Shown: positions 44,479 to 63,027 of the stretch, piece after piece
Layout of the letters: the number at the start of each line of letters is the position of its first letter
Position numbering within the stretch: position 1 is the first letter of the stretch
DNA from: Terriglobales bacterium
GTDB lineage: Bacteria > Acidobacteriota > Terriglobia > Terriglobales > Acidobacteriaceae
Direction: 5' to 3'
DNA length: 64,000 bases
Assembly (NCBI GenBank): GCA_050011975.1
Contig: JBEKIB010000006.1
Span: forward strand, 26,433-90,432
Position numbers and translations under genes: made by a program
The notes under the pieces: generated by a model
The model's input: the letters and a program-made list of their open reading frames with translations, nothing else
Told to the model about the DNA's origin: nothing
The model's database searches: none

Positions 44479-44586
44479 CAGAGGTCAGAGGTTAGATTGC
44501 AGAGGTAAGAACCCCCAATTTTCAGCAATTGCGCTGCTGCGAGAGGGTTCTACCTCTGCAATCTAACCTCTAACCTCTGACCTGCA
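44479..44586. repeat. Periodic-arm palindrome 1 (heptamer units CAGAGGT / ACCTCTG)
   Basis: The left arm is CAGAGGT CAGAGGT TAGATTG CAGAGGT AAGAACC (44479-44513). After a loop of about 30 nt, the right arm is GGTTCT ACCTCTG CAATCTA ACCTCTA ACCTCTG ACCTGCA (44546-44586). The arms are mirrored unit for unit. The right arm overlaps the last 5 codons and stop of the FGE-like gene. Confidence 0.9.
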
Positions 44587-45412
44587 ATTGTACGTCGCAC
44601 GCGACGCGGAACCCATAGTCGGCGTACTTGAATTCCGGAGGGATGCTGGAGCGGGCGGCGCAGCGCGACATTTTGACGTGGTGACGCCAGGAGCCTCCGC
44701 GGGAAGCGCGCCGGTCGCCGGTTTCAGGGCCGCGTGGATTACGCTCGGGCGACACCGCATAGTAGTTGGCCGCGTACCAGTCGCTGCACCACTCGTGCAC
44801 GTTGTCGCACATGTTGTAAAGGCCGTATGCGTTGGCGTCGGCGCGACCAACGGGTTCGGGGCCGGTCTTCCAATGGGTCGCGCAACGATCTGCGTAGCCG
44901 GGCAACGACTGCGGCGGCGCATCGCCCCACGGGAAGAGTGCGCCTGCGTCTACGTCTGCATCTGCATCGTCCATGCCTCCGCGTGCCGCGCGCTCCCACT
45001 CGGCCTCGGTAGGCAAGCGGAAATTTTTGCCGGTCGTTATTCCGTCGGGCGCTATTCCATCGGTCTTTATTCTGCCGGTCGTTGCGCTGAGCCACCGGCA
45101 GTAGCGGATTGCTTCGTACCACGACACTCCAACGACTGGCTGCTCAGGATGGTTGAACGCGGGGTCGCTCCAGAACGGTGGCGACGAGGATAGAGATGCG
45201 GTGTCGCGCAGGAAACGTTCGTAGTCGGCATTAGTGACTTGGTGAGCACCGAGCAGAAATTCGTCAACCCAGACGCGATGCACCGGCTTTTCGTTGTCCT
45301 GTCCGGTGTCGCAGCCCATCAGGAACCAGCCTGCGGGGATGCGGACGAGCGCGGGAACGCAATCTTGTTCTTGCGTTCGGGATCGGAAGAGCAATTCGGC
45401 AGCCGGGTCCAT
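44570..45412 (-). CDS. Formylglycine-generating-enzyme (SUMF1/FGE-sulfatase) domain protein
   Basis: The track ORF is 400 aa, but its first 120 codons overlap thiE. The ATG at 45412 lies 4 nt after the thiE stop and gives 280 aa. Motifs are RIPAGWFLMGCD, NEKPVHRVWVDEFLLGAHQVTNADYERF and RGGSWRH. Confidence 0.8.
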   Translation of the reverse strand: MDPAAELLFRSRTQEQDCVPALVRIPAGWFLMGCDTGQDNEKPVHRVWVDEFLLGAHQVTNADYERFLRDTASLSSSPPFWSDPAFNHPEQPVVGVSWYEAIRYCRWLSATTGRIKTDGIAPDGITTGKNFRLPTEAEWERAARGGMDDADADVDAGALFPWGDAPPQSLPGYADRCATHWKTGPEPVGRADANAYGLYNMCDNVHEWCSDWYAANYYAVSPERNPRGPETGDRRASRGGSWRHHVKMSRCAARSSIPPEFKYADYGFRVACDVQLQVRG

Positions 45413-45416
45413 GGGG

Positions 45417-46103
45417 TCAGAGCGCCCGCAGCGCGCGGGCGACGTCCTCGATTTTATTCTCCTGAAACAAGCGGATGGCGGCGATGCCGGCCGCTCCCGC
45501 TTCCAGGCACGAGGCGGCGTTCTCCACCGTGACGCCGCCGAGAGCGAGAACGGGAATCTTGGCGCGGCAGGCTTCCCGCAAGGCGGCGAGGCCAGCGGGT
45601 GGCGTCCCGGTAGAGCCTCTTTTTCCGAACACCGGAGCGAAAACGGCGAAGTCGGCTTTCTCGGACTCGGCGCGGTAGACATCGGCGGCAGTGTGGCAGG
45701 AGGCGACCACGAGAAAGTGGTCAGTGGCCGGCGGCCGGTGGGCAGAAGCTTCCAACACATGGCGCACTTCATGAGGCGCGATATCGTCGGAGCGCAGATG
45801 AACGCCGTCGGCTCCCGCGGCGAGCGCGACGTCGGTGCGGGAGTTGATGAGGATGCGAGTTCTCAGTTCCCGGTTCTCAGTTCTCAGTGGAGTGCCGTTG
45901 CGCACGGCTACTAGAGCGTCGCCTGCCAGCATTTCCAGCTCTCTCGCACTCAGATCTTTTTCGCGGAGCTGGATATAGTCGATGCCGACACTCGCAGCTT
46001 CGGCGATCCTGGCGAGCAGGGCGCGGCGGCGCGCGTATTCGTCGCCGCGGAACTGGCTGCGGTCGGTGATGTAGTAGAGCAGACAGCGGTCAGCCATCGG
46101 CAT
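45417..46103 (-). CDS. thiE: Thiamine-phosphate synthase
   Basis: 228 aa with motifs IDYIQLREKD, ILINSRTDVALAAGADGVHL, VASCH and IPVLALGGVTVENA...GAAGIAAI. Confidence 0.85.
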   Translation of the reverse strand: MPMADRCLLYYITDRSQFRGDEYARRRALLARIAEAASVGIDYIQLREKDLSARELEMLAGDALVAVRNGTPLRTENRELRTRILINSRTDVALAAGADGVHLRSDDIAPHEVRHVLEASAHRPPATDHFLVVASCHTAADVYRAESEKADFAVFAPVFGKRGSTGTPPAGLAALREACRAKIPVLALGGVTVENAASCLEAGAAGIAAIRLFQENKIEDVARALRAL

Positions 46104-46137
46104 TCAGCGTACTACGAGAGCTCGCTCCACACGGGTC

Positions 46138-47493
46138 CTACTGTCCGATGAACAACTTCAAATTCTCAGCCTTCCAGCGCATCGCGGCATAAATGCGATT
46201 ACGTCCGCTCGGATGATCGAAAAAGATCCACTCCTCGATGGGGCCGGGATTCATCTTGCGGTATTCGCCGAGATGGATCGCCGCCTGGGCAAAGCCGTCG
46301 GGCTGCCGGCTCGTGTTCAGTCCGTACATGTCGGCTTCGTATTCCTGAGTGCGGATGAAGGTGTTCATGACGGGAGTGATGACGAAACCAAAGATGGCGA
46401 CCAGCAGCACCACGAGCGGAAGAACGGCCGTGTCGCCCAAGCCGCGAATCTGCCACTTCTCGCCCCAGCGCTGCAGCGCCCAGTCGATGGACCAGCGCAA
46501 GTAAACGAAGGCCAGAACGATCACGATCAAGAAAAACATGATGCTCTTGTAGATGTGATTCATAACGTAGTGCCCCATCTCGTGTCCCATGACCGCCTGA
46601 ATTTCTTCCGGCGAGCCGCGGCGCAAAAGATTGTCATTGAGGGTGATGCGCATCGTATGGGCGAAGCCGCTGACGTTGGCGCTCATCCGCGTCGTTTGCC
46701 GCGAAGCGTCGATCTCGAACACATCCTTCGCGGGAATTCCGTTGGCCCGCGCCATGCTCAGGATGGGGTCGACAATCTTCGGATCGTTGAGGCGCGTCAC
46801 CTTATTGAAGATGGGAACAATGTAGACAGGCGAGATCAGCACAGTGAAGATGAGGAACAGGATAGTCACGACCGCGCCCCAGATCCACCAGGTTCGCGGC
46901 AGGCGGCGAACAACGCCGAACAGCAGCATGGCCAGCAGGCCGCCCAGCACCAGGTTCACACCGAGCTCCTTCATCTGATCTCCCATCCAGGGGCCAAAGG
47001 TTTGCGTGGCGAGTCCATATTTGTGTTCGCGGAAATAATCTTCGTAAACCGTGAGCGGGAAGACGAGGATGCTGGTGACCACGAGGTATTGCAACCAGTA
47101 CACGAAGGTGTGCACCGGCTTGAAGCGAGTGACCCGCTCCGACAGGTCTCGCATGCGGGCCGACCACCGCAAATTCAGCAACAGCAGCGCGATTGCCACT
47201 CCATAGAGAAAGTCCCAAAGAATCATCCAGTAGCCGCCCTCGAAATAGGCATCGGAACGGGCCGTCTTGTCGGGAGGAATCTGCGCGAGGTAAGCGTTGG
47301 TGGCCGCCGTGGCGTCGAAATGCGGCGAGGCCTGGGCCTCGGCGGGAACCTGGATCACGGATGGCATCTGGTTCGCGGCTGGCGGTTGAGCGAACGTGGG
47401 AGTTGCGAGAAAAGTTGCGCAGAAGAAAATCACACAACCGAGTGCTGTCGCCAAGCTTATTCGTAAGGGCATCTTGTTTGTCTCCGAAAACAC
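46138..47493 (-). CDS. M48-family zinc metallopeptidase (Ste24/HtpX-like), membrane-bound
   Basis: 451 aa with several TM helices and the HExxH site VMGHEMGHYVMNH. Confidence 0.85.
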   Translation of the reverse strand: MFSETNKMPLRISLATALGCVIFFCATFLATPTFAQPPAANQMPSVIQVPAEAQASPHFDATAATNAYLAQIPPDKTARSDAYFEGGYWMILWDFLYGVAIALLLLNLRWSARMRDLSERVTRFKPVHTFVYWLQYLVVTSILVFPLTVYEDYFREHKYGLATQTFGPWMGDQMKELGVNLVLGGLLAMLLFGVVRRLPRTWWIWGAVVTILFLIFTVLISPVYIVPIFNKVTRLNDPKIVDPILSMARANGIPAKDVFEIDASRQTTRMSANVSGFAHTMRITLNDNLLRRGSPEEIQAVMGHEMGHYVMNHIYKSIMFFLIVIVLAFVYLRWSIDWALQRWGEKWQIRGLGDTAVLPLVVLLVAIFGFVITPVMNTFIRTQEYEADMYGLNTSRQPDGFAQAAIHLGEYRKMNPGPIEEWIFFDHPSGRNRIYAAMRWKAENLKLFIGQ

Positions 47494-47544
47494 CTACCCG
47501 CAGAAGTGTATACGGAGTCAGACTGCCGAGGGTTCAATTTCCTG

Positions 47545-47596
47545 GTAGAGACGGGCTTGCCCCGTCTTCCGCTGCCGAGACGCGGCAAGCTGCGTC
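47545..47596. repeat. REP-like short hairpins, one with a GTAG head
   Basis: GTAG (47545-48) is followed by AGACGGG-cttgc-CCCGTCT (47549-67). A second hairpin GACGC-ggcaagct-GCGTC (47579-96) is followed by CCTGTGGGG. Confidence 0.4.
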
Positions 47597-47627
47597 CCTG
47601 TGGGGCCGGTTTGCTGGTGTCAACTTG

Positions 47628-48521
47628 CTACGGCCTTGTCTTGGCGATTTCGGGGACGGCCGCTTCGCCGGTGCGCTTGCTTGGTTGCTGGCCCAGATGG
47701 TGCCTGGTCAGTCCTTCTTTCAGGAACTCGAAACTTTCCTCCGGCGAATCGCACATCTTGAACAGTTGGAGGTCTTCTGGCGAGATCATGCCGGCGTCGA
47801 CCATGGCTTCGAAATTGACGATCTTCTTCCAGTAATCGCTGCCATAGATGACGATGACAATTTTCTTGGCCAGCTTCTCCGTCTGGGCCAGGGTAACGAT
47901 TTCAAAAAATTCGTCGAGCGTGCCAAAGCCTCCGGGAAAGATCACCAGCGCTTTGGCCAGGTACGCAAACCAGAACTTGCGCATGAAGAAATAGTGGAAC
48001 TCAAAGTTGAGCGAAGGCGTGATGTAGGCGTTCGGATTCTGCTCGAAGGGTAGGTTGATGTTGAGGCCGATGGTTTTTCCTCCCGCTTCATGGGCGCCGA
48101 GATTGGCGGCTTCCATGATGCCCGGGCCGCCGCCCGTGGTGACGACGAAGCGGTGGCGCTTGGCGGGAATCTGGGTGGACCATTCGGTCAGCAGGAAGGC
48201 CAGCCGGCGCGCGTCCTCGTAGTAGCGCGCCATGTCAACCGCGGCCTCGGCGCCCTTCATATTCTTGGCTTGCTGTGCGGCGGAGACGTCAGCGCCGTTG
48301 CCGCGGACTTCCGTCAGACGGTTGCTGGCGTTGTCGCGGCTGTGGATGCGGGCCGAGCCGAAGAAGACGACCGTGTCCTGGATCTGCTCGCGGCGGAAGC
48401 GCGAGAGCGGCTCGCTGTACTCCGACAGCAGGCGCAGAATTCTCCCGTCAGGACTGTTGAGAAATGGTTCGTTCTGATACGCGAGGGGAGCGGGCTTGAG
48501 TTTTTGATCAGTCATAGTCAT
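47628..48521 (-). CDS. LOG-family (TIGR00730-type) nucleotide phosphoribohydrolase-like protein
   Basis: 297 aa with motifs GGGPGIMEA and PGGFGTLDEFFE. Confidence 0.8.
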   Translation of the reverse strand: MTMTDQKLKPAPLAYQNEPFLNSPDGRILRLLSEYSEPLSRFRREQIQDTVVFFGSARIHSRDNASNRLTEVRGNGADVSAAQQAKNMKGAEAAVDMARYYEDARRLAFLLTEWSTQIPAKRHRFVVTTGGGPGIMEAANLGAHEAGGKTIGLNINLPFEQNPNAYITPSLNFEFHYFFMRKFWFAYLAKALVIFPGGFGTLDEFFEIVTLAQTEKLAKKIVIVIYGSDYWKKIVNFEAMVDAGMISPEDLQLFKMCDSPEESFEFLKEGLTRHHLGQQPSKRTGEAAVPEIAKTRP

Positions 48522-48647
48522 TGAGGCATTGAATCATTTAATCATTGAGTCATTTGATCATTGAATCACTGAGACCTTGAATCATTGGGGCATTGGGTTA
48601 ATGTTTCAATACCTCAATGATTCAATGACTCAATGACTCAATGTCTC
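48520..48647. repeat. Periodic-arm palindrome 2 (16 in-phase octamers, ATTGAnTC then AATGAnTC)
   Basis: The first ten units are ATTGAGGC ATTGAATC ATTTAATC ATTGAGTC ATTTGATC ATTGAATC ACTGAGAC CTTGAATC ATTGGGGC ATTGGGTT. The next six are AATGTTTC AATACCTC AATGATTC AATGACTC AATGACTC AATGTCTC. The halves are imperfect reverse complements. The array touches the LOG start codon at one end and the stop of the 48646..49089 ORF at the other. Confidence 0.9.
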
Positions 48648-49089
48648 ATTCTTCCTGATATTGAATGGCCTCCCAAAATCCGATCCACACATTGAGCACG
48701 CCCAAGCCGGTCGAGACGCCGCGCGCGAAGCCGCTGGCTACAATGGCGCGAAGCGTGGGATACGGGAGGAGCAGAGGGTTGTCGGACCACTCGGGACGCC
48801 AGGGCAGAATCATGAGCATCACCCCCACCGTTGCGCACAGGAACACGAACAGTAGCACTCCGATGCGGCGCAGCCACACCCGCGCGACCGAAGGCGAGGG
48901 TCTGGAACCCGAAACTGGCACGGGCGCTTGCACGGGAACGACCGGGACGGATGTTTCCGTCGGGGATTTGAGTTCTCCGACACTGGTGGAGTCGCTGCCA
49001 AAGGGTAGCTTGGGATCGGAAATCATTGCACGCGTCGTTGTAGATAAGGCCGTGGGGTGGGCGCGGGATCGAGTTGCATCCCAGCGCAA
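48646..49089 (-). CDS. Hypothetical membrane protein downstream of the TPR gene
   Basis: 147 aa with two hydrophobic helices (IGVLLFVFLCATVGVMLMIL and GVSTGLGVLNVWIGFW) and a Pro/Ser-rich N-terminal part. No family recognised and the start is uncertain. Confidence 0.45.
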   Translation of the reverse strand: MRWDATRSRAHPTALSTTTRAMISDPKLPFGSDSTSVGELKSPTETSVPVVPVQAPVPVSGSRPSPSVARVWLRRIGVLLFVFLCATVGVMLMILPWRPEWSDNPLLLPYPTLRAIVASGFARGVSTGLGVLNVWIGFWEAIQYQEE

Positions 49090-49112
49090 GTTTTGAACCC
49101 ACTTGGTGCATT

Positions 49113-52100
49113 CTACGACTTCAGAGCCTGAATGCGCTCGGCCACGTCGCGATAATCGATATTCGAACCGTACACACTGGTGAAATGACGCAGTGCCGCA
49201 GGCTTGTCCATGGCAGTTTCGCAGGCCGACCCCAGCTCATAGTTGATGGCAACGCGCGCTTCGTCATCGAGCCCGGGAATGTTCAGCGCCTTTTCGTACC
49301 AGCGGATGGCGGCGTCGGGAACTCCTTTATCGAGGAAGCACTGGGCCAACCAGGTGTAGGTCTGGACGGGCTGCGTAAATGCCTTGCCGCGATCGATCGC
49401 GGTACACACTTTCTGCAATTCGGCGATGGCTTCATCGAGCAGGCCCATCTCGCGGAAGGCAACCCCCAGGTTGTAATGCGTTTCCGGATCGTCGTCGCCG
49501 GCCATAACCTCTTCTTCGAGTTCGTGTTTCAACTCGCCGAACATCTCCGCCAGATCGACACTGTCGGAAGGATGCATGGCCTGCGCTCCAGCTCCCAAGG
49601 GGCGTATGGCAGCGGGGCTGTAGCTCATGGCAGGAGCGGCGGCGGTTGCGGCGCCTCCCGCCGATGCCGCGATCGCCGGCATGGCTGCCGGAGCCGCTGG
49701 AATTTCGCGTTCGAGTGCTACTGGCTCCGTTTCCGGTTCGGGCGTTCTCGCTGCGGCCGGCAGTGGCGCCGGACCCACGGGCCAGCCCGGCAGCGGCCGG
49801 GGGTCAGGTGGCTGAGTTACCGGCGAATGAGTAACGGGTGAATGCGCCGCGGGAAGGTCGGCCGCGGGCGGCAGCGCTTGCGGGAAAGAATCGCCGAGTG
49901 AAGCTTCCAGGTCTGCAACAAACGCAGTCAGCTCGCTTGCCTCCGCATGTACGGGTTCGGCGTGATCTGGTTCTGTTTGATCCGGTTCTGCCTGATGATG
50001 TTCGGCACAGGCCGGTTCGGGCTCGGCTTCCGCCGAAGCCGCAGCGTGGATCGGGTCGTGAACCGCGTCCTCGTAACCCACCAGATCAGGCGAGGCGGCG
50101 ATCTCGGACCCGTCTTGCTGCGTCTTCAGTTCAACTTCGAAATCCACGGGCTCGTCGGCGTTGATCTCGGTGATTTCCGGCTCGGGCTCGCTCGGCGGCT
50201 GGCCGGCGGATTCGACGGCAGCGCGCAACGGATCAAGAATGCGGGCATCGCTGGTCAGGGATTCGAGCTTCCCGATTCCGGCGCGGGCCTGGTCCGTCAT
50301 GAAGTGCTCGAGATAGAAACGGATTTCTTCGACCGTCTCGGCGATCTCGGGATTGCCGGAAGCATCGGCGTCGGCCTCGCCTTCGACGGTGGCCGGCAGT
50401 TCCGCGGCCGGAGCGGCCTCGTCGACGGAAAGGGAATGCTCCCACTCGGAGGAAAGGTCCGAGGCAAGGTCGGTGGAAGGATCGTGCGCGTCCCCGGGCG
50501 GGTGCGCCGCCAATTCCTGGACGGCGAACTCCGGACGCGCGGCCGCGGCGCGTTCGGGATCGGAAGCCGAGGGCGCGGCCATCGGCCAGGGCGGAGTGGC
50601 AGCAGCGGCAGCAGCGGCGCGGCCCGCAGGCGGCGCCGCGACCGATGAAGCGATGGCGGGCGAGGCGATCGTCGCCGGAGCAGCGGTCGATGAGGCGGCA
50701 GACGAGGAAGCAGCGGATTCCGCGTTCTGCTCATAGCGCGCCCCTAATTCTCCATAGCGCACGGCTTCATCGGGGTAGCCGGCATCGTGGTACACGCTTT
50801 CCAGGGTGCGGCAGCAAACGGCCGCTTCGGTGAAGCGCTGGAAGCGAGTATGAAGCGCGGCCAGGCGCTGGTTCAGCCGCACGTCGCGCGGTGCCTGAGG
50901 CAGAGCCCCCAGCAGAGGCACCACTGCCTTGTCGGGCAGATTGTAAGAAAGAAACAGGTCGGCATCGGTGACCGCGGAGCGCACTGCGATCGCGATGTGG
51001 TCGGGATAAGACTGGTCGATGACGGGCGCGGTCGCTTCCAACTCCTCCACGATGACCGCCCCTTCTTCGGCCGTGATCCCGATCGCGGGCGAGGCGCCCT
51101 CCATGCGAGCCACCACTTGCTGATAATTCTGCATGTGCAATGGGTTCTGGGGCTCGGTGGTGGCCAGTATCTGGTACAGGTCGCGAGCGCGGGCCAGGTT
51201 TCCGTCCTTGACGGAAGAGTGAGCCAGAAGCTCGGTGATTTCGTCGACGTGCGTGCTTTCGCCGGCTTTGCCCAGCAGCAGCAAGAGTGAGTCCAGTGCG
51301 CCCGAATCGTCGCGCACATGGGTGATCATGGCGTGCAGGCTGGCCAGCAATTTGGTCGAGTCGGTCGCCAGCAGGCGATCGGCGTGCCGGGTGTAAACGT
51401 CGAGCGCCTCATGATACTGACCGAGCCGGGCGCAACCCTCGGCCAGCAGAAACAGCCCTTCGGGGTCATTGTGCACGGTGAGCAGCTTTTCGGCGATCGG
51501 GCCAGCGTCGGTCGGGTTTCCGATTTGCAGGTACGCCTTCAGCAGATCGCGCAAACCTTCGGGATGAGAATCGAGGTCAGGAGCCTTCTCCAGGTAGGCG
51601 ATGGCATTCTTCGGATCGTCACTTTCGAGGGCGGACTTCCCGCGCAGCAGCAGAACGTAACTGTTGCCCGGATCGAGCGTCAGCATCCGCTTCAGAATGT
51701 CTTCGGCGGCGGAGAGTGAACCACGGGCCCGCAGCGATTCAGCCGCCGCGCTGAAAATCTCCCACGCCTCTTTCTTTTTTCCGAGGCGGATATAAACCTC
51801 GGCGAGCTTGACCCGCATGGGCACATTTTCCGGGTCCATTTCGAGGACCTTCTGGAAAAGGCGTACCGCTTGGTCGAGGTCGCCATTCTTCATGAAGTCT
51901 TCCGCGACTTGCAGATACTGGGCGCGAGCGTCGTTGAACAGCCCTTGCTGGGTGTAGAGTTCCGCCAGTTTCAGAGATCCATCCACGCTCGGATGGAGCT
52001 TGGTGATCTTCTTGTACATGGCGATGCCCTTAACCGTGAAGCCCTGCGCGGCATAGGCATCGCCCACCGTCTTGAAGCACTCGATGGCTTTGGCAATGTC

Positions 52101-52271: not shown

Positions 52272-52438
52272 AAGGTGTGCGGACTCCAGCCTTTTTCCCG
52301 CCGAACGCCCGCGATTTCCGCCAACGTTGCCGAACGGGTCCGAACCTCGCTGGGAGATTCCCAGGCGAAACCCCGCAAACCGCGTAAACCGGGATCACGG
52401 AGTAAGGTAATTGTAAGGCCCGGTACTGTCAGTCCGAT

Positions 52439-52490
52439 GGTTACCGACGATTACCGGGGGTTACCAAAAGGGAGTGTACGTCCGGTAACG
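52439..52490. repeat. Phased G(G/A)TTACC repeats in the divergent TPR / metallophosphoesterase intergenic region
   Basis: GGTTACC lies at 52439, GATTACC at 52449 and GGTTACC at 52459, an exact 10-bp phasing. An inverted copy CGGTAAC lies at 52484-52490. Confidence 0.5.
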
Positions 52491-54363: not shown

Positions 54364-54418
54364 AGCGGCGTCACCGTTGCCGGAGTGCGCACCCGTGACG
54401 CGGCAAGCCACGTCTCCC

Positions 54419-55108: not shown

Positions 55109-55172
55109 GGCGGGGAATTGTAGCACCGGGGGAGCCGTCGCGGCTCGAACGGTATCCGAGCCGCTCGGATGA

Positions 55173-55196
55173 ACAGCCGAGGGCGGCTGTCCCTAC
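55173..55196 (-). repeat. REP-like hairpin with GTAG head downstream of pyrC
   Basis: The minus strand reads GTAG-GG-ACAGCCG-ccct-CGGCTGT. On the plus strand this is ACAGCCG aggg CGGCTGT CC CTAC. Confidence 0.35.
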
Positions 55197-55216
55197 GCGG
55201 GGTCAACACGCAAAAT

Positions 55217-56515
55217 TCAAGCGGAGTACACGATCTTCCCGCCGACAATTGTCGCGACTACTTTTCCCGTGAGCTGCCGTCCATCGAAGGGCGTGTTCTT
55301 CGATTTCGAGCGGGACTTGTTGACATCGAAGGTCCACTTCTTTTTCGGATCGAAAACAGTAATGTCGGCGATCGAGCCGCGGGCCAGCGACCCGCGCCCG
55401 CGAAGATCGAAACAGCGGGCCGGGCCGGCAGTCAAGAGTTCCACGATGCGGGCAAGCGGGATGCGCTTCTCGCGATGCAGCCTGGTGATCGCCAGCGCCA
55501 GCGCCGTTTCCAGTCCGGTGATGCCGAACGCCGCGAGTTCGAATTCCATCTCTTTTTCGTGAGCGGCGTGGGGGGCGTGATCGGTGGCGATGGCGTCCAC
55601 CGTACCGTCGGCAAGCGCGGCCAGGATAGCTTCGAGGTCGGAGGCCGAGCGCAGCGGCGGATTCATCTTGTAATTGCTGTCGTAGTCACGCATATCCTCG
55701 TCGGTCAGCGTGAAATGGTGTGGCGTAACTTCAAAGGTGACGCGCGCTTTCGCGCGCTTGCCCCGGCGCACACTCTTCAGCGCGTCCGCCGTGGAAAGAT
55801 GCGCAACGTGCAGGCGCGCATTGGGAATGTGCATCGCAAGCTGCACGTCACGCTCAACGATCGAGGCCTCGGCCGCCGCGGTCATGCCGCGCAATCCGAG
55901 ACGGAACGAGCGCGCGCCCGCGTGCATCGAGCAATTTTCGGTCATCCGAGTGTCTTCGGCATGTTGTACGATCGGGAAATTCAGCTCCCCGCCCAGGACC
56001 AAGGCTTCGCGCATGATTTCGTCGTCGAGGATAGGCTTGCCATCGTCGGTGACCGCGATCGCTCCGGCGGAGTGCAGCGCACGGAAATCGGTGAGCGTGA
56101 CTCCCTTGCTCGAACGAGTCGCAGCAGCAATCGCAAATACATTCACAACCGCGCCGCGTTCGGGCTGACGAAGCCACTCGATCCACTCCACCGAATCGAC
56201 CACTGGAACCGTGTTGGGCATGGTGCAGACCGAAGTGAAGCCGCCAGCCGCGGCGGCCGCCGTGCCCGTCGCGATGGTCTCTTTATATGACTGGCCGGGC
56301 TCGCGCAGGTGAACGTGCAGATCGATGAAGCCCGGCGCGACGATGAGCCCGCGGGCGTCGAACTTCTCGTCCGCGCCTTTGATCTTGTTGGGAGCAGCAA
56401 TTTCGGCGACGCGGCCATCTTTGAGCAGCACGTCCATGGGCGCGTCGATGCGAGCCGCCGGGTCGATGAGATGGCCGCCCTTGATCAGCAGACTGCTTGT
56501 GGATCGTGAAGTCAC
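55217..56515 (-). CDS. pyrC: Dihydroorotase
   Basis: 432 aa with a GTG start at 56515 preceded by AAGGA (5-nt spacer). Motifs are GFIDLHVHLREPG and ATDHAPH. Confidence 0.9.
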   Translation of the reverse strand: MTSRSTSSLLIKGGHLIDPAARIDAPMDVLLKDGRVAEIAAPNKIKGADEKFDARGLIVAPGFIDLHVHLREPGQSYKETIATGTAAAAAGGFTSVCTMPNTVPVVDSVEWIEWLRQPERGAVVNVFAIAAATRSSKGVTLTDFRALHSAGAIAVTDDGKPILDDEIMREALVLGGELNFPIVQHAEDTRMTENCSMHAGARSFRLGLRGMTAAAEASIVERDVQLAMHIPNARLHVAHLSTADALKSVRRGKRAKARVTFEVTPHHFTLTDEDMRDYDSNYKMNPPLRSASDLEAILAALADGTVDAIATDHAPHAAHEKEMEFELAAFGITGLETALALAITRLHREKRIPLARIVELLTAGPARCFDLRGRGSLARGSIADITVFDPKKKWTFDVNKSRSKSKNTPFDGRQLTGKVVATIVGGKIVYSA

Positions 56516-56546
56516 GTCAATCCTTGAATTCCACAGATATTTTTTT

Positions 56547-56631
56547 TACCACGGAGTCACGGAGACACAAAGAAAACCAAATCAGGCCTTATTGGTTTTG
56601 ATTTTCTCCGTGTCTCCGTGACTCCGTGGTA
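56547..56631. repeat. Periodic-arm palindrome 3 (octamer units nCACGGAG / CTCCGTGn) between pyrB and pyrC
   Basis: Perfect 22-nt arms TACCACGGAGTCACGGAGACAC (56547-68) and GTGTCTCCGTGACTCCGTGGTA (56610-31). The 41-nt centre is partly self-complementary. A T7 run lies immediately 5' on the plus strand. Confidence 0.9.
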
Positions 56632-56640
56632 AATCGATCT

Positions 56641-57552
56641 TCATCGCATCTTTCCCATCGCCCGCGCCAGAATCGCCATGCGCGTGGGCACGCCGTTGCG
56701 CACTTCCTCCAGGATCCGCGCCTGCGCGCCGTCGGCTACCTCGCTGGTCAGTTCCAGCCCGCGAATAATCGGGCCGGGATGCATCACGATGGCGTCCTTC
56801 TTTGCCATCTTCAATCGCGCCGGAGTCATCTGGTAGCGCGCAATGTATTCCGGGAGGTCGATTTTCATGCCGGAGAGGCGCTCTTTCTGCACCCGCAGCA
56901 GCATGACCACATCGGTGCCGCGCAAGGCGTCTTCAATATGACGGGTCACGCGCACGCCGGGCGCGAGGGTGGTCGCAATGTCAGGCGCCAGTTCCGGCGG
57001 ACCGCAAAGAATAATCTTCACCCCGAACTTGCTTAACAGGTGGCACGCCGATCGCGCCACCCGGCTGTGAAAGATGTCACCGACAATCGCGATCTGCAGG
57101 CCTTTGAAAGTTTTCTTGTTGCGCAGAATTGTATAAGCGTCGAGCAGCGCCTGCGAGGGATGCTCGTGCAGTCCATCTCCGGCGTTGATGACGGGCACGT
57201 CGATGTGCTGCGCCATCACGTAGGGCGCGCCGGCATTGGGGTGGCGGATGACGATGATGTCGGCGCCCACGGCGCGCACCGTGTATCCCGTGTCGAGCAG
57301 CGATTCGCCTTTCTCGATACTGGAACCGATCGCCTGGATGAGGACGGTGTGAGCGCCCATCGCTTTCGCCGCGATTTCAAACGAGCTCCGGGTGCGGGTG
57401 GAGGCCTCGTAAAAAAGAAGAAGCACCCGCCTGCCCTTGAGCAGGGGCCGCGGCTTGTCCGGATTCATGCGCCGGGCAAACTTAAAAATTCTCAGGATCT
57501 CGGCTGCTTCCAGGTGCTCGATGCCGAGCAGGGAACCGCGCGCTGGATTCAT
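56641..57552 (-). CDS. pyrB: Aspartate carbamoyltransferase catalytic subunit
   Basis: 303 aa with motifs LLFYEASTRTRSSFE and HEHPSQALLD. Confidence 0.9.
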   Translation of the reverse strand: MNPARGSLLGIEHLEAAEILRIFKFARRMNPDKPRPLLKGRRVLLLFYEASTRTRSSFEIAAKAMGAHTVLIQAIGSSIEKGESLLDTGYTVRAVGADIIVIRHPNAGAPYVMAQHIDVPVINAGDGLHEHPSQALLDAYTILRNKKTFKGLQIAIVGDIFHSRVARSACHLLSKFGVKIILCGPPELAPDIATTLAPGVRVTRHIEDALRGTDVVMLLRVQKERLSGMKIDLPEYIARYQMTPARLKMAKKDAIVMHPGPIIRGLELTSEVADGAQARILEEVRNGVPTRMAILARAMGKMR

Positions 57553-57556
57553 AATT

Positions 57557-57643
57557 AATTTGTGATTTCCAATTTGTAATTTGTGATTAAGAACCGCGCA
57601 ATGGGCTTTTTAATTACAAATTACAAACCGCAAATTACAAATT
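57557..57643. repeat. Periodic-arm palindrome 4 (heptamer units ATTTGTr / TTACAAA) between pyrR and pyrB
   Basis: The left arm is AATTTGTGATTTCCAATTTGTAATTTGTGATTAA (57557-90). The right arm is TTAATTACAAATTACAAACCGCAAATTACAAATT (57610-43). The arms are 34 nt with a 4-nt internal mismatch block. The right arm contains the pyrR stop codon. The left arm ends 4 nt from the pyrB ATG. Confidence 0.9.
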
Positions 57644-58243: not shown

Positions 58244-58290
58244 GATCAGAGCAAGGCCGCGTCTGAACCCCGCATCGATGCTGATTGAAA

Positions 58291-59013
58291 CTACACGCTG
58301 GTTTTGCCGGGCCGCAGCAACAGCGTGGCCAGCGCACCTCCAACGGAGGCGAGCACCGCGGTAACAATCATCCCAAAAAAGAAGGTGAGCGCCAGCCCCG
58401 ACGGGGTGAACAGGTTGTGGATGCTGGCTTGAATGTCAGGGTCCGCCGCGTTGGCTCCGAACCTTTGCGCGACTTTCAGGACGGCCTCGGTGTATTCCTG
58501 CTGGGCATGAAAGACAAAAATCCGGATGGTGATCAACAGAGCGTTAATGGCGAAGGCGACGACGCCCGCTGCTCCTCCGACACGCGCTCCGAGAGCGGCA
58601 GGAAGTGCGAATCCATTTTCGCGGCGGTAGAAAAAGACGCCCAGCGCCCCAGTCAGCACGATGCCGAGAAATGGGATCATGCCGATGAAAACGCCGAGCA
58701 CACCGGCCTTGAGCGCAGCCCGAACGGCAATTCCCCTGTCGATCGTTCCGGCCATCGTGCTTCCGAATGGCTGCCTCGGAGACGAAACCAGCCCCGTCTC
58801 TGCGGGAATCTCCGGAGGAGCCTCGTCCGGCGCGGGTTTCAAGTCCGCGCCAATTTCAGCATCCGGAATCGCCACCTGCACGTGTATTTGAGGGGCGCGG
58901 CATTGCGGACAAAACGGCCGCCCGTCCTCGACCGTGGTCCCACATTGTTGGCAAGGGTGTTCCACGTCTTTGAAGCTAGCGCACAACGAACCCCGAGAGC
59001 AAGGCAGGGCCAT
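58291..59013 (-). CDS. Zinc-ribbon domain membrane protein
   Basis: 240 aa with N-terminal CQQCGTTVEDGRPFCPQCRAPQI (CxxC...CxxC), followed by about 4 TM helices. Confidence 0.5.
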   Translation of the reverse strand: MALPCSRGSLCASFKDVEHPCQQCGTTVEDGRPFCPQCRAPQIHVQVAIPDAEIGADLKPAPDEAPPEIPAETGLVSSPRQPFGSTMAGTIDRGIAVRAALKAGVLGVFIGMIPFLGIVLTGALGVFFYRRENGFALPAALGARVGGAAGVVAFAINALLITIRIFVFHAQQEYTEAVLKVAQRFGANAADPDIQASIHNLFTPSGLALTFFFGMIVTAVLASVGGALATLLLRPGKTSV

Positions 59014-59107
59014 TGAATCATTGAGTCATTACGTCATTGAATCATTGGGTGATCTGGTAAGGAGGGACGATTCCATGATGCAATGTCTCAATGCCTCAAT
59101 GCCTCAT
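59011..59107. repeat. Periodic-arm palindrome 5 (same ATTGAnTC / AATGnCTC octamer family as palindrome 2)
   Basis: The left arm is CATTGAAT CATTGAGT CATTACGT CATTGAAT CATTGGGT. The loop contains AAGGAGG. The right arm is CAATGTCT CAATGCCT CAATGCCT CAT. It starts with the complement of the zinc-ribbon gene ATG and ends 1 nt before the lipoprotein gene stop. Confidence 0.85.
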
Positions 59108-59734
59108 TCAGATCGTATCGTCCGAGCCCGAGTGCATGCGCACATAAACCAGGGCAAAGCGGGTTCCCGGGCTGTGGGGCTTCACGGCAACGACGTGCTG
59201 GTTCCCCTCTGTGCCCACCTTCAACTCCACCGAATCTCCGCCGCCGCTGTTCCCGCATGAGACCGGCTTCGACATGTCATCCTTGCCGGCTTTGGTTTCT
59301 ACGCTACCGCCGTGCCAGGCGCCGCGGCACTGGATGGGCTTGCCATATTTCTGCAGCTCTTTGTCGTAGTAGGCGATGATTTTGTCGGGAGCGTCGTCGG
59401 AGACGAACTCTGCGGCCACCACTTTCAACGAGAATCCCATCACCGAAAGATTTACATTGGCGCTCTTCTTGTCGTCGCTGTCGTCTTTCGGTGCCGGCTT
59501 CGCGCCGGGATAGAGCGCCAGCCCAGCGTCGCGGATGTCGGCTTGATCGCTGACGTGCAAATCACCCATGGGGGTCTTGATATCAACGTGCTTCTCGCCA
59601 TCCTTGCCCTTGTCGTTCGTATTGATGCTGCAAGCGGGAAGCACCGAGAGCGCGGCCAACAGCGCGGCCCAAGAAAGTCTTACGATCACGTTACGGCTGA
59701 ACATTTTAACGCTGGACATTTTAACGCTGGACAT
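59108..59734 (-). CDS. Lipoprotein of unknown function
   Basis: The ATG at 59734 is preceded by GGAGG. The lipobox is LSVLPAC-S. The track ORF extends further upstream into GH3. The mature part is Asp/Lys-rich. Confidence 0.55.
   Translation of the reverse strand: MSSVKMSSVKMFSRNVIVRLSWAALLAALSVLPACSINTNDKGKDGEKHVDIKTPMGDLHVSDQADIRDAGLALYPGAKPAPKDDSDDKKSANVNLSVMGFSLKVVAAEFVSDDAPDKIIAYYDKELQKYGKPIQCRGAWHGGSVETKAGKDDMSKPVSCGNSGGGDSVELKVGTEGNQHVVAVKPHSPGTRFALVYVRMHSGSDDTI
59690..59734 (-). repeat. 15-bp tandem duplication at the lipoprotein start (MSSVK MSSVK MFSRN)
   Basis: On the minus strand, ATGTCCAGCGTTAAA occurs twice perfectly (59734-59720 and 59719-59705). A degenerate third copy ATGTTCAGCCGTAAC follows. 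The GH3 stop codon lies inside the first copy. Confidence 0.85.
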
Positions 59735-61646
59735 GGGAGGAACCTCCTGAGCTGGGTTGGGCTGAAATTGGCCGGGCAGGGCGCTCGATCCCCTCGCCTC
59801 GGGATGCGATGCCCGGAATCGTAACCGGCAGATGACCACTGATCGGGATTTCGCCGAATATCGCTTTCACGGCAGCAGATTCCGACACGGTTGCATTGGA
59901 GAACGCGCACACATAATTCTGGATCGCGGGGAAATCCTGCACCACATAGGGATTTCCCATGGCGAGTACTACAGTACGCTTGGCGGCGCTGTCGAGAATC
60001 GCCGTAAGCAAAGATCCTGTAGCCTCGTCCATGGCGACGGTATTCCTCAAACCTCCTCCAGCGGCACGCATCGCCTTGCCCGCGGTCGGAACCACATACA
60101 CTGCGGCGATTACGTGTTCCGCCGCTTCCACCGCTTCAATCACGGGCGCCTTCATGCCGGCAGCCGAGCGCGCATCCACATAGATCATGCGGGCGTCAGG
60201 CACACGGGCTAGAATCTGGCGTTCGAGCATACGTCCGGAATCGGCGCGCAGGTCGTCGGAAAAAATCACCACTACGAGACGGTTGCTCACCTCTGTCAAT
60301 GATTGATACGGAAGCCCGGCCACAGGAGTTCCAAAAGACTGCAGCGGGATCACTTTGCCGTTGTCGCGGATGAGGGTAATCGCTTCGTCGGCAATACGCT
60401 GGCCGGCGGCCAGATTCTCCGGTTTCGCAATCTCGCTCGAGAGTCGGTCAGGGTCCACCAGGCGCGCCTGGTTCAAACCGAGAGAAGCCTTAAGCTCCAG
60501 AATCTTGCGCACGGATTGATCGAGCCGCGGACGGCTGATTTCGCCGCTATGCACCGCTTGCAGCATCGAGCGATAACTGGCGCCGAGATCGGCTGGAATG
60601 ATCAGCATGTCATTGCCGGCTTCGAAGGATTCGACCGCGGCCCGGCCGATATCCTTGGCGTAGATGCGCGTCAGCCCCGCCATGTCGAGGGCGTCGGTCA
60701 CGACGATCCCTTTGAATCCCAAGTCCTCTTTGAGCAGTCCGGTCACAATCGCCTTGGAAGTTGTAGCCACCCGGTTGGGCTCGGCGTCGAGAGCGGGAAC
60801 GGTTACGTGCGCCACCATCACAGCGTCGACCCCTGCCTCAATCGCGCGCCGGAACGGCGGCAGTTCGACCTCATCGAGGCGTGCCCGGTCGCCAGTGACT
60901 TCAGCGAGGCCAAGATGAGAATCGGCAGCGGTGTCGCCGTGTCCGGGAAAGTGTTTGGCCGTCGCCAGCATGGAGCCTTCGTGAGCGCCCCGAATGTACG
61001 CCGCCACGAAATCGCCCACCTGCTTCGGGTCTTCTCCGAACGAGCGCGTGTTAATAATGGGATTCGCCGGGTTGGAATTTACGTCGGCAACGGGAAAGAA
61101 ATTCCAATGCACTCCAACGGCCCTCGCTTCGAGCGCCGTGATGCGTCCAAAGGCCTCAGCATTTTCCGTTTTGCCGGTAGCTCCAAAAGCCATCGCATGG
61201 GGAAAGACAGTAGCGCCATTCAACCGCATCGACACACCGCGCTCGAAGTCTGCCGCCACAATAAGGGGCAGCTTGGAGGATTTCTGCAGCCGGTTGAGCA
61301 GCTCGGCAGCGACATCGGGTTGGCTTTTGAGCAGGACCGGGCCATCCACCGGTACGCTCATGACCAGGGCTCCAATGTGATATTTGCGGATGTTGTCGCG
61401 CATCTGAATATAGAGGGGGTCGGCATCGTTCAGAAATTGCGCTCTCACAAAGATCGCGAAGAGTTGGCCGACTTTTTCTTCGGGCGACATCTTGCGTAAC
61501 GTCTTGTCGACCCACTTCTGTCCGGCTCTGTCGACATGGATGGGACCGGGCTGCAGAAAGCGGTCCTTGCTCGTGTCTTTAGCAAAGCAAAGCGCCGCGG
61601 CCAGCAGGAGCGCGATCGGCAGAAGATGTCGGAGCATGCAATTCAC
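59721..61646 (-). CDS. Glycoside hydrolase family 3 protein (beta-N-acetylhexosaminidase / beta-glucosidase-like), secreted
   Basis: 641 aa with a signal peptide. The GH3 motifs are KHFPGHGDTAADSH and GIVVTDALDM. Confidence 0.8.
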   Translation of the reverse strand: MNCMLRHLLPIALLLAAALCFAKDTSKDRFLQPGPIHVDRAGQKWVDKTLRKMSPEEKVGQLFAIFVRAQFLNDADPLYIQMRDNIRKYHIGALVMSVPVDGPVLLKSQPDVAAELLNRLQKSSKLPLIVAADFERGVSMRLNGATVFPHAMAFGATGKTENAEAFGRITALEARAVGVHWNFFPVADVNSNPANPIINTRSFGEDPKQVGDFVAAYIRGAHEGSMLATAKHFPGHGDTAADSHLGLAEVTGDRARLDEVELPPFRRAIEAGVDAVMVAHVTVPALDAEPNRVATTSKAIVTGLLKEDLGFKGIVVTDALDMAGLTRIYAKDIGRAAVESFEAGNDMLIIPADLGASYRSMLQAVHSGEISRPRLDQSVRKILELKASLGLNQARLVDPDRLSSEIAKPENLAAGQRIADEAITLIRDNGKVIPLQSFGTPVAGLPYQSLTEVSNRLVVVIFSDDLRADSGRMLERQILARVPDARMIYVDARSAAGMKAPVIEAVEAAEHVIAAVYVVPTAGKAMRAAGGGLRNTVAMDEATGSLLTAILDSAAKRTVVLAMGNPYVVQDFPAIQNYVCAFSNATVSESAAVKAIFGEIPISGHLPVTIPGIASRGEGIERPARPISAQPSSGGSSHVQR

Positions 61647-61679
61647 AATAGCAAAAGTTGAAATTGCACGCGAACTCTC

Positions 61680-62708
61680 TCAAATTTCTCCTTCAACAAT
61701 TGCAATGCCTTCCGCCTGAATCGCCGGCTCGTCGCCAAACCCGGCCAGCCAATGCACATCTGGTTCTCGCCGGAACCATGTGATCTGGCGCTTGGCATAG
61801 TTACGATGTGCCTGTTGCGCCGCGGCGATTGCCGATTCCCGATCCAGTTCGCCGCGCAAGAACTGCATCGCCTGCTTGTATCCGAGCGACGCGAGCGGGC
61901 GCGCTTCGTCGCCATACTTTGCGAGAAGCCGTTCCGTCTCGGCGATCAGGCCTTCGTCAAACATCTTCGCGGCCCGCTGGTTGATGCGGACATAAAGAAC
62001 TTTGCGCCCCGGATTGAGCCCGAGACGCAGAACGCGAAAGCCGCGCAGCGGTTCGCGTCCCTGCTGCCAGAGTTCGGTCATATTTCGAGCCGAGGTTCGA
62101 GCCGAGGTTCGGCGCGAAACCAGGCACACTTCAATCGCCCGGATCATCTTCGGAACGTCATGGGCGTGAATGCGGCTCGCTGCCGAAGAGTCGAGCCGCC
62201 GCAGGATGCGGTGCAAGTGCTCGCTCCCGCACTTCTCGGCGCGTGCGCGCAGTTTGCTGCGCAGCTCTTCGGACCGCTGCGGGCCGGAAAAAAGTCCTTC
62301 GAGCAAAGCGCGCAGATAGAGTCCGGTTCCGCCGCTGACGATGGGCAAATGTCTTCGCTGCCCGTCTTCGCTTAAGGCTCTCTCGCGCAGAACTATTTCG
62401 CGTAGAATCTGCCGCGCCTGGCGCGCATATTCTCCCGCGCTGACGTCGGCAAGCGGATCCACGCAATCCAGCAGGTGATGCGGAACTTCCGCGCGCTCGG
62501 CCGCACTGGGCTTGGCCGTGCCGACGTCAAATTCGCGGTACATTGCAACCGAATCGCAGTTGACAATTTCTCCGCCGAAGCGCCGCGCGATCCCGAGCGC
62601 CAGCGCCGTCTTCCCGCTCGCCGTGGGACCAAGCACGACGACGAGCAGCGGCTCGCGATTTAGCCCAGGCGGCTTCGGCAACCCCGGCAACTTCAGCGCG
62701 CGTTCCAA
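61680..62708 (-). CDS. miaA: tRNA dimethylallyltransferase
   Basis: 342 aa with P-loop GPTASGKT, followed by NCDSVAMYREFDVGTAKPS. Confidence 0.9.
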   Translation of the reverse strand: MERALKLPGLPKPPGLNREPLLVVVLGPTASGKTALALGIARRFGGEIVNCDSVAMYREFDVGTAKPSAAERAEVPHHLLDCVDPLADVSAGEYARQARQILREIVLRERALSEDGQRRHLPIVSGGTGLYLRALLEGLFSGPQRSEELRSKLRARAEKCGSEHLHRILRRLDSSAASRIHAHDVPKMIRAIEVCLVSRRTSARTSARNMTELWQQGREPLRGFRVLRLGLNPGRKVLYVRINQRAAKMFDEGLIAETERLLAKYGDEARPLASLGYKQAMQFLRGELDRESAIAAAQQAHRNYAKRQITWFRREPDVHWLAGFGDEPAIQAEGIAIVEGEI

Positions 62709-62884
62709 GGAATATACCGCCAGTAGCGGATGATGGTGAGAACGAGCAGTAGAACCGCCATGAGAAGCAATCCGGTGGCTTCGGCGGCGTAGATGGAATG
62801 GCGGTGCTGATGCTTGTTGTCCTGATGCTGGTTGTGCTGATGCTCGTGGTCGGCCGCCGGCTTCGGGGGAACGGGGGAGTTCAC
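62693..62884 (-). CDS. Small His-rich single-pass membrane protein (tentative)
   Basis: 63 aa with a GTG start. The N-terminus DHEHQHNQHQDNKHQHRH is followed by one TM helix (GLLLMAVLLLVLTII). It overlaps the miaA start by 16 nt. No SD is visible. Confidence 0.3.
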   Translation of the reverse strand: MNSPVPPKPAADHEHQHNQHQDNKHQHRHSIYAAEATGLLLMAVLLLVLTIIRYWRYIPWNAR

Positions 62885-62904
62885 GCGGCTATTGTAGCCG
62901 TTTC

Positions 62905-63027
62905 GTTGGTCGATAGTCGTTAGTCGTCAGTCGATGGTCGGCAGCAAACGCCGTTCGCACCCATTCATCGCGAACGACCAACGACCAACGACGAACGACT
63001 AACGACGAACGACTAACGACCAGCGAC
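62905..63027. repeat. Periodic-arm palindrome 6 (heptamer units GTyAGTC / GACnAAC)
   Basis: The left arm is GTTGGTC GATAGTC GTTAGTC GTCAGTC GATGGTC GGCAGCA (62905-46). After a loop of about 25 nt, the right arm is GACCAAC GACCAAC GACGAAC GACTAAC GACGAAC GACTAAC GACCAGC (about 62976-63024). Arm complementarity is about 80%. Confidence 0.85.

Follow-up and report, generated by a model that had tools for sequence, protein, structure and literature searches.

A 64,000-nucleotide window of a Terriglobales bacterium genome (Acidobacteriaceae; GenBank assembly GCA_050011975.1, contig JBEKIB010000006.1, positions 26,433 to 90,432 of the forward strand) contains six intergenic palindromes whose arms are tandem arrays of short units. 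A first-pass annotation had located these palindromes and treated them as local intercistronic structures. All six were found again, but their units mark them as members of dispersed families of repeats, which are present in divergent and convergent gaps as well, and the six loci probably all belong to one superfamily, short interspersed foldback repeats that are characteristic of Terriglobales/Acidobacteriaceae genomes. The observation is real and more general than had been assumed. The families are many, each defined by the sequence of its unit, and each copy has the same anatomy: two inverted arms built from arrays of a 7-nt (less often 8-nt) unit, sometimes with an inner core, around a loop of 5-90 nt. 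The elements are an abundant feature with an odd combination of traits, namely conserved arms, unrelated loops and a fixed polarity.

The evidence for dispersal comes from related genomes and metagenomes. A PyrB scan of species-representative genomes gave 80 loci, which come from genome bins of Acidobacteriaceae/Terriglobales and have 78-97% identity in PyrB, and the total sampled DNA comprises these loci (1.56 Mb) plus at least 120 metagenome contigs (675 kb). The relatives hold 165 detected hairpins, 94 with periodic arms, and 93 of these 94 are intergenic though 85% of the DNA is coding. The metagenome scan used the core of element 1, the first of the six palindromes, and returned at least 120 stretches from soil, peat and bog samples (median GC 0.58). 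Among the matches listed are at least 53 complete hairpins with differing flanks, which together with element 1 form family 1. Arm matches of this family are intergenic in 149 of 167 cases on contigs that are 83% coding sequence, and the same contigs carry about 45 more periodic-arm hairpins of other families, all of them intergenic. Both samples combined contain some 186 periodic-arm hairpins, roughly one per 10-17 kb and nearly all intergenic.

The 53 copies of family 1 share the common arm consensus GGTCAGAGGTTAGAGGTCAGATTGCAGAGGTGAAAA and its complement, with loops of 5-89 nt. The conserved core AGARGTYARATTGMAGARGT recurs at unrelated sites in L014, L028, L029, L058 and L072, and TAGATTG of element 1 is part of it. 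Units of the other families include GTTTCAAG, GTCGTTr, AGGTsTC, AGTTCyC, CAGTTGC, AATTTGT, ATTGAnTC, ATCGGGTG, AGCCATC and CACnGAG. For example, the ATTGAnTC family is found elsewhere at L071 5489, at L117 2187 and at one junction of relatives (u208/Zn-ribbon, below), and the GTCGTTr family stands at non-orthologous sites (L043 19685, L058 16310, L020 8503 and L035 8546), where copies at different junctions share a central motif. Since the same units stand at unrelated sites in relatives and metagenomes, all six unit types of the window belong to recurring families. A plasmid collection gave no match to the family-1 consensus. Viral contigs gave five, of which only L205 and L206 are real copies and the others chance; many matches to the GTCGTT pattern, recurring at 21-nt spacing, were also seen in viral contigs.

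In the window, Tandem Repeats Finder assigns a period of 7 or 8 to the arrays in each arm of every element, which agrees with the degenerate 7- or 8-nt arrays of the first-pass annotation, and the units it listed read directly as it gave them. Arm length is 29-58 nt and complementarity 72-97%; no strand is assigned to the elements. Element 1 (44479-44586) belongs to family 1, with CAGAGGT/AGAAGT heptamers and the conserved core GTYAGATTGCAGAGGT; its 29-nt arms (44479-44507 and 44551-44579) are 97% complementary and the stem runs inward to about 44516/44543. Element 2 (48516-48648), of the ATTGAnTC octamer family, consists of arrays at 48518-48587 (8.8 units) and 48600-48648; its best register pairs 44 nt (48543-48586 with 48600-48643, 82% complementary), and further registers pair too. 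Element 3 (56545-56633), of the CACnGAG octamer family, has 37-nt arms (56545-56581 and 56597-56633, 92% complementary) and a 15-nt loop. The arms of element 4 (57557-57643), of the AATTTGT heptamer family, are also 37 nt long (57557-57593 and 57607-57643, 84%), and those of element 5 (59011-59107), again an ATTGAnTC octamer copy, 33 nt (59011-59043 and 59069-59101, 82%). Element 6 (62903-63028) is a GTCGTTr heptamer copy with the conserved central motif TTCGCGATGAATG, arrays at 62903-62944 and 62971-63028, and 38-nt arms (62903-62940 and 62975-63012) that are 84% complementary.

As minus-strand RNA, elements 1 to 6 are predicted to fold with free energies of -75.9, -51.2, -62.7, -30.4, -35.1 and -74.2 kcal/mol (z-scores of -10.9, -6.4, -12.9, -4.8, -3.5 and -6.3), and for each of the six none of 200 shuffled sequences folds as well as the native one. 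Three further assemblies, obtained from different samples, match the window at 99.9% identity (15, 7 and 2 mismatches, no indels) and show zero differences at elements 2-6. Because these independent assemblies agree there, and because the elements are also kept across many independent genome bins, an assembly artefact is ruled out. The agreement of the three assemblies also shows that the elements are not hypervariable, and the earlier suggestion of slippage-prone contingency sequences is not supported.

Position, symmetry and turnover

Among independent copies, 62 lie in co-directional, 17 in convergent and 9 in divergent gaps, and the median distance (an approximate figure) is 3-11 nt to the upstream stop and 21-40 nt to the downstream start. 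The period is 7 nt in 131 of the 186 hairpins, 8 nt in 43 and another value in 12. G exceeds C in the 5' arm of 162 out of 179 periodic hairpins; counted by unit class, this holds for 61 of 76. As the elements are palindromes, the G-rich array is the leading one whichever strand is read. Two candidate explanations for the arm sequence were rejected. An all-frame stop module, in which 7- or 8-nt units bearing a stop triplet would close every reading frame, is not apparent, with 1.27 frames blocked by 5' arms, 1.34 by 3' arms and 1.22 by shuffled arms. Arms resembling Shine-Dalgarno (SD) and anti-SD sequences (AGAGGT/ACCTCT, GGAG/CTCC, GGTGATC) fit some families only and are not general.

The palindrome is maintained beyond the repetition of its units, as had been proposed. 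In the 53 copies of family 1, 89.7% of cells are paired, and 86 cells are changed on both sides compared with 42.9 in shuffles, a number that none of 500 shuffles reached. The main double change (AGAGGT/ACCTCT versus AGAAGT/ACTTCT) involves three positions. Over all periodic hairpins, 71.5% of deviations from an array's own unit consensus are mirrored in the opposite arm, a figure somewhat inflated by the detector, which requires at least 78% complementarity. The mirrored pair TAGATTG/CAATCTA, singled out in the first-pass annotation, is not private to element 1 but belongs to the conserved core of a dispersed family.

Arms and loops evolve differently. In 25-27 orthologous pyrR-pyrB hairpins, column identity is 0.9-0.99 in the arms and 0.35-0.7 in the loops, compared with 0.63 at 4-fold degenerate sites of pyrB. 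The arms, far more conserved than neutral sites, are thus constrained or homogenised, whereas the loops drift at about the neutral rate. Within family 1, the tandem part is the outer one, at the stem base, and its copy number varies around a fixed inner core; the loops share nothing with one another or with the flanks. An origin of the loop from the target site or its flanks was tried and rejected: the longest shared word is 6.3 nt, compared with 6.4 nt for the loops of other copies.

Selection on the sense-strand RNA was assessed from G.U and A.C mismatches. The orthologous set gave a positive signal (G.U 72 versus A.C 39), which vanished in independent copies between co-directional genes (G.U 41 versus A.C 40; 18 elements versus 19). 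The balance in independent copies gives no sign that one transcript is the selected object, and the symmetry appears better explained at the level of DNA.

Orthologous junctions compared between species show gain, loss and replacement of elements; between strains the elements are stable. The four junctions that can be compared in relatives are either short and empty or filled by an element. Gaps between pyrR and pyrB measure 11-32 nt, or about 90-110 nt with an AATTTGT hairpin; the hairpin of element 4 is present in about 30 relatives, and in some species another repeat stands there. Between pyrB and pyrC, empty alleles have an ATGA stop/start overlap and filled alleles a CACnGAG hairpin with a new AAGGA-GTG start; L010 has the GTG start without a hairpin, and L013 the 5' arm alone. 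At the junction between u208 and the Zn-ribbon gene, where element 5 lies, species carry arrays of ATTGAnTC, of ATCGGnTC, of both mixed, or of GTCGTTr, and the type of unit in one arm goes with that in the other (r 0.71 and 0.64; cross-correlation -0.27). On a pyrB tree, to be taken as a rough guide only, the minimum number of state changes is 20, 17 and 22 for three junctions. Nested copies point to layered insertion or growth: an AGAAGTC hairpin sits in the loop of a CACAGAG hairpin (L014, L028) and an AGTTCTC hairpin in a family-1 loop (L095), with a further case in L115. Solo arms were seen in L013, L082 and L085.

Other sequences occupy these junctions as well. A third type of insert at the pyrR-pyrB junction of L012, L013, L027 and L030 (about 9870-10000) consists of two small hairpins, CAGCGCCTGAAGGCGCT and GGCACGCCTGAAGGCGTGCC. 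Another dispersed hairpin repeat, TTGTCATCCTGAGCGAAGCGAAGGACCTG..., is non-periodic and occurs at L004 17372, L006 9864, L018 8292, L020 17960, L022 7274, L040 17567, L045 12747 and L046 9864, the copies in L006 and L046 lying at the pyrR-pyrB junction. Small genes are found at junctions that bear hairpins in other species (L015, L058 and L067 downstream of pyrB; L127 758-1132); judged by eye, we take them to resemble GxxExxY-type proteins and four-helix-bundle proteins of the type encoded by 23S rRNA intervening sequences. The most distant relative, L080 (PyrB 78% identical), carries a direct-only array after pyrB (AGGCTCT x 19.7, 10898-11034) with no inverted partner.

Explanations for dispersal and symmetry

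We propose that the palindrome is propagated and kept symmetrical on DNA, and that selection on one transcript would not be the main agent. Candidate processes are copying of whole elements, slippage adding or removing 7-8-nt units, and template switching from arm to arm. Slippage is suggested because the tandem part of family 1 is its outer, variable part and because extra tandem duplications lie beside stem bases; template switching between arms, or whole-element copying, would keep the arms matched. Mobilisation would differ from classical transposition with terminal inverted repeats and target-site duplications, and the long intercistronic hairpins in transcripts would be a side effect. 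It is also conceivable, although we would not favour it, that these are prokaryotic foldback elements of a new kind, in which the arms are copied and the loop is made anew at each site. The copying would then be non-canonical, for example transfer of a single arm followed by hairpin-templated mirror synthesis, or repair of a perfect palindrome broken at its centre. The G-rich-first polarity and the 7-8-nt unit might in that case reflect the mechanism itself or a single-strand-binding partner (e.g. a cold-shock protein) that opens the hairpin.

Several points weigh against a dispersed, mobile superfamily. All six elements lie within 44-63 kb, and with the solo arm and the repetitive extragenic palindromic (REP) hairpins described below they fall in the final 20 kb of the window; the 27 gaps of its first 44 kb hold none of these elements, just ordinary short hairpins (e.g. 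24196-24228 and 29788-29818). The census covers loci and contigs and no complete genome, and its gene calls are crude, which makes distances to stops and starts approximate. Arm conservation above that of neutral sites indicates constraint, possibly through a host function (at the RNA level or by protein binding) and not selfish maintenance. The sense-strand excess of G.U in the orthologous set points the same way, in copies that are not independent. Moreover, conserved arms with unrelated loops are unlike simple whole-element copy-and-paste. The search revealed no defined termini, no target-site duplication and no mobilising gene for the elements, and mobility is deduced from dispersal and from filled and empty sites only.

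In one alternative the elements are host-selected RNA elements acting in the polycistronic transcript, their spread reflecting selection for a role: protection of the 3' end or partial termination behind the upstream gene, RNase III processing between cistrons, or coupling or occlusion of the downstream start. The strong folds are consistent with this, as are the stops in or beside the 5' arm, the starts at or inside the 3' arm, the position nearer the upstream stop than the downstream start, and the depletion in divergent gaps. So are arm conservation above 4-fold degenerate sites, CACnGAG orthologues that change G-C to A-U via G.U, the G.U excess among orthologues and the lack of canonical terminators in the region. 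We nevertheless regard this explanation as rather doubtful. The strand asymmetry disappears in independent copies; element 6 and its orthologues stand between divergent starts, with only 18 and 29 nt to the start codons; conservation in the arms extends to primary sequence and is not limited to pairing; a U-tract is absent; and the same operon junctions, where empty, function with an overlapping ATGA. Conservation beyond pairing, the 7-8-nt period and the G-rich arm that comes first in most hairpins and unit classes would suit arms that are arrays of protein binding sites, either for a cold-shock-domain protein (each binding about 7 nt of G/T-rich single strand) or for a DNA-binding protein on inverted arrays; binding would then conserve the arms, and the protein would open or close the hairpin. 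According to a summary in PMC4679880, heptamer repeats are reportedly bound by CspB at one protein for each heptamer. Dozens of unit sequences, including the purine-rich AGAGGT, and no single motif common to them make this a poor prospect.

The recurrence of cores and motifs bears on a non-mobile origin, in which replication stalls at an intergenic hairpin, 7-8 nt are duplicated by slippage at the base of the stem, and the duplicate is mirrored through template switching, independently at each site. Such growth in place cannot account for one non-repetitive core of 20-40 nt recurring at over 100 unrelated sites, for the central motif common to GTCGTTr copies at different junctions, or for nested copies of known families, and high-identity arms have already been seen in paralogous family-1 copies within a genome. 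As a complete explanation it is unlikely, but it could operate in addition to dispersal. In its favour, period 7 prevails irrespective of the unit's sequence, the outer tandem part of family 1 is copy-variable around a fixed core, mismatches are strand-symmetric, and mixed ATTGA/ATCGG arrays suggest local turnover of units. Extra tandem duplications also adjoin stem bases (L046, L079) and gene starts (59696-59734 in the window), and slippage of heptamers has been proposed for bacterial simple sequence repeats (PMC4692102). A further possibility, that of classical MITEs (miniature inverted-repeat transposable elements) moved by a DDE transposase, or REP doublets (REPINs) moved by a REP-associated tyrosine transposase (RAYT)/Y1 transposase, we consider very improbable. 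Intergenic palindromic repeats with filled and empty sites would fit it, Acidobacteria encode Y1 transposases flanked by inverted repeats (PMC3733652), and GTAG-type REPs are present in the window (47546-47598). However, no target-site duplication was seen in the flanks of the 53 family-1 copies or in the comparison of filled and empty pyrB-pyrC alleles, the interior is not conserved, the GTAG/CGTC head is absent and single arms are non-palindromic. In the loci sampled, arm pairs that stand far apart enclose hpf, purN and a four-helix-bundle gene, with no transposase or RAYT among them.

Gene junctions and neighbouring repeats in the window

By Pfam, the minus-strand genes of this region encode DinB/DUF1572, FGE-sulfatase, TenI/ThiE-like, M48 peptidase, LOG, TPR, pyrC, pyrB, pyrR, Zn-ribbon, GH3 and miaA products. 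The gene order is kept in relatives: a regulator gene pointing away, then the small open reading frame (ORF), miaA, GH3, u208, Zn-ribbon, pyrR, pyrB and pyrC. Co-directional minus-strand genes flank elements 1-5, as the first-pass annotation stated for all six gaps; the gap of element 6 is divergent. The arms were also said to abut or overlap stops and starts, and stops do lie in or beside the 5' arm of elements 1-5 and starts beside the 3' arm (LOG, pyrB, Zn-ribbon).

Element 1 separates the FGE-sulfatase gene from the DinB/DUF1572 gene (ATG 44463-44465), and the end of the FGE-sulfatase gene is itself arm sequence, comprising the final five codons and TAG 44570-44572 (...QLQVRG-TAG). The longest FGE-sulfatase ORF (44570-45772) overlaps the TenI-like ORF (45417-46103) by about 355 nt, and the start of that FGE-sulfatase ORF is a tentative one. 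Element 2 lies between a small membrane-protein ORF (48646-49089), whose TGA (48646-48648) is inside the first unit, and the LOG-family gene, whose ATG (48519-48521) is inside the last. Element 3 stands between pyrB (TGA 56641-56643) and pyrC (GTG 56513-56515, with AAGGA ahead of the start). The first unit of element 4 contributes the pyrR stop (TAA 57635-57637, ...VNL-TAA), and the pyrB ATG (57550-57552) is 4 nt past the stem. Element 5 spans the entire gap from the TGA of u208 (59108-59110) to the ATG of the Zn-ribbon gene (59011-59013), which is inside the last unit.

In the predicted fold of element 4, UAA and AUG are opposite each other at the stem base. In that of element 5, the downstream AUG is base-paired in the stem, with sequence 6 nt after the upstream UGA. 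Start occlusion or translational coupling is structurally plausible for these two elements. Transcripts of the operon copies (elements 1-5) would carry a 25-40-bp hairpin from the upstream stop to the downstream start, which would bring stop and start codons together at the stem base and hide the downstream initiation region until a terminating ribosome melts that base. Since this ribosome would free the next start, coupling would be preserved across the insert. The long stem could also bar 3' exonucleases or be a substrate of RNase III.

The gap of element 6 is read as divergent because the plus-strand ORF 63058-63930 is a real regulator gene (Trans_reg_C in Pfam) and the overlapping minus-strand ORF 63013-63606 has no Pfam match. 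The element lies 29 nt from the regulator ATG (63058) and 18 nt from the GTG of a 63-aa minus-strand ORF (62693-62884) upstream of miaA, and its divergent context is kept in relatives. Just outside it on either side (62885-62903 and 63028-63057) lie TACAAT, 6 nt ahead of the 63-aa ORF's GTG, and TACACT, 14 nt ahead of the regulator ATG; read by eye, the outermost arm units would then sit roughly where -35 boxes would be. A motif near the element, GCTACAAT, is also conserved by eye in L020 and L024.

A solo arm-like heptamer array on the plus strand (45858-45888, AGTTCTC x 4.4, AGTTCyC family) lies in frame inside the TenI/ThiE-like ORF 45417-46103, where it codes for PLRTENRELRTR; over 30 nt it shares 93% identity with the arms of AGTTCyC hairpins in L141 and L095. 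Alignment of the TenI/ThiE-like product to ThiE structures gave no clear insertion. At the start region of u208, a 15-nt tandem duplication (x 2.6, 59696-59734) gives MSSVKMSSVKMFS and repeats the start codon; short duplications of this kind are also found at pyrC starts in L003 and L030 and next to hairpin bases in L046 and L079. A non-palindromic 22-nt unit, GGTGCCAGCTGTGCAACATAGG, is repeated 2.7 times in the intergenic gap 22936-22995. GTAG-headed REP hairpins form a separate class in the window, at 47546-47598 in the M48-LOG gap (GGTAGAGACGGGCTTGCCCCGTCTTC followed by GAGACGCGGCAAGCTGCGTCCC) and, in a related form, at 54395-54416; this REP family also occurs in relatives (e.g. L001 7417, L004 268 and L014 2691).

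Relation to known repeats and significance

The elements are best filed, by analogy, beside the inverted heptamer arrays of Xanthomonas and the short tandemly repeated repetitive (STRR) hairpins of cyanobacteria, as a multi-family form in Acidobacteria. The first-pass annotation could assign the architecture to no known class. This stands as far as identity with REP elements, MITEs, CRISPR arrays, terminators or Rfam families is concerned, but the analogues just named have been published. A literature search on repeats of Acidobacteria and on the literal arm sequences found no description. In Rfam, the window reaches the gathering threshold with one tRNA only and no family does so at any element, where the only matches are generic microRNA-precursor hairpins below threshold; the tRNA gene is on the minus strand at 43610-43696 (58.7 bits). 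The terminator scan returned no match at any element and no canonical terminator in this region, and the 3' flanks have no T-run, which agrees with the earlier reading that the elements, lacking a U-tract, are not canonical intrinsic terminators.

Xanthomonas genomes each contain about 185 intergenic arrays of the heptamer GGGAATC (Rehm et al. 2015, PMC4692102). They include 70-75 convergently oriented pairs, with one array per strand at short distance, that can form stem-loops; 89-93% of arrays are intergenic, at 28 nt to the upstream and 160 nt to the downstream ORF (PMC4692102). Most occupy co-directional gaps, with 16% in convergent and 7-8% in divergent ones, their length differs between species, and they are interpreted as G-quadruplex formers (PMC4692102). 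Shared with the elements described here are tandem units of about 7 nt, close inverted pairs, intergenic location, a position nearer the upstream than the downstream ORF, and the distribution among gap types. The G-rich array also comes first in both, if 'convergent' in PMC4692102 is taken in the sense in which we read it. The differences are equally clear. Xanthomonas, of another phylum, has one G-rich unit, whereas here there are dozens of families of 7- and 8-mers, mostly without G-tracts (runs of three or more G are absent from all six unit types of the window), some of them with a non-repetitive conserved core. Nesting, co-variation of arms and the contrast in constraint between arm and loop are not reported there.

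Cyanobacterial 7-bp STRR arrays form hairpins between hupS and hupL, for which a role in transcript stability or translational coupling has been proposed (PMC2670836). They resemble the present elements as 7-bp tandem units forming an intercistronic hairpin within an operon. However, STRRs have few unit types, are confined to filamentous cyanobacteria and mostly form direct, unpaired arrays; the host here is one of the Acidobacteriaceae, the units are unlike the G-rich units of Nostoc, and there is no sequence relation. The TAACTGA heptamers of Beggiatoa are direct repeats only. Mycobacterial interspersed repetitive units (MIRUs), as cited in PMC3184786, are short repeats in intercistronic operon gaps whose ends supply stop and start codons, but they are direct, non-palindromic tandem repeats of 40-100 bp. 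The Foldback (FB) elements of Drosophila have inverted arms of short tandem repeats in variable copy number around a heterogeneous centre. They are eukaryotic, kilobase-sized and in some copies coding, and the likeness is one of architecture, with no homology implied.

The classes set aside in the first-pass annotation remain so. REP elements, their mosaic form BIME (bacterial interspersed mosaic elements) and REPINs are likewise small interspersed intergenic palindromes, often right after stops and in operon junctions, and roles in mRNA stability and translation have been proposed for REP/BIME sequences (PMC3733652). REPs, however, are imperfect palindromes of 20-40 bp with a GTAG/CGTC head and a link to RAYTs, whereas the arms here are tandem arrays of 25-60 nt, headless and individually non-palindromic. 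Bacterial MITEs such as Correia, Nezha and ERIC have filled and empty orthologous sites (PMC3184786), and like the present elements they are non-coding, intergenic, about 100-150 bp long and predicted to fold stably. Their terminal inverted repeats, direct target duplications and conserved interior related to insertion sequences are not seen here. CRISPR arrays differ in having direct repeats of 24-48 nt with unique spacers, in place of contiguous 7-8-nt units in inverted arms.

Heptamer repeats are over-represented in bacteria, and G-quadruplexes are the explanation offered in Xanthomonas. Given the same architecture and polarity in dozens of units that are not G-rich, it is the inverted heptamer-array form itself that needs explaining, and not the potential to form quadruplexes. 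In practical terms, the families could serve as markers of Acidobacteria in metagenomes, and such repeats are a known hazard for assembly and gene calling. If the sampled density of about one per 10-17 kb holds genome-wide, the elements would be a major feature of the intergenic DNA of Terriglobales. They rewrite the ends of genes by supplying stop codons, C-terminal residues and start codons, and they turn tightly coupled ATGA junctions into structured spacers of 90-130 nt; on both grounds, they probably shape the expression of the operons in which they reside.

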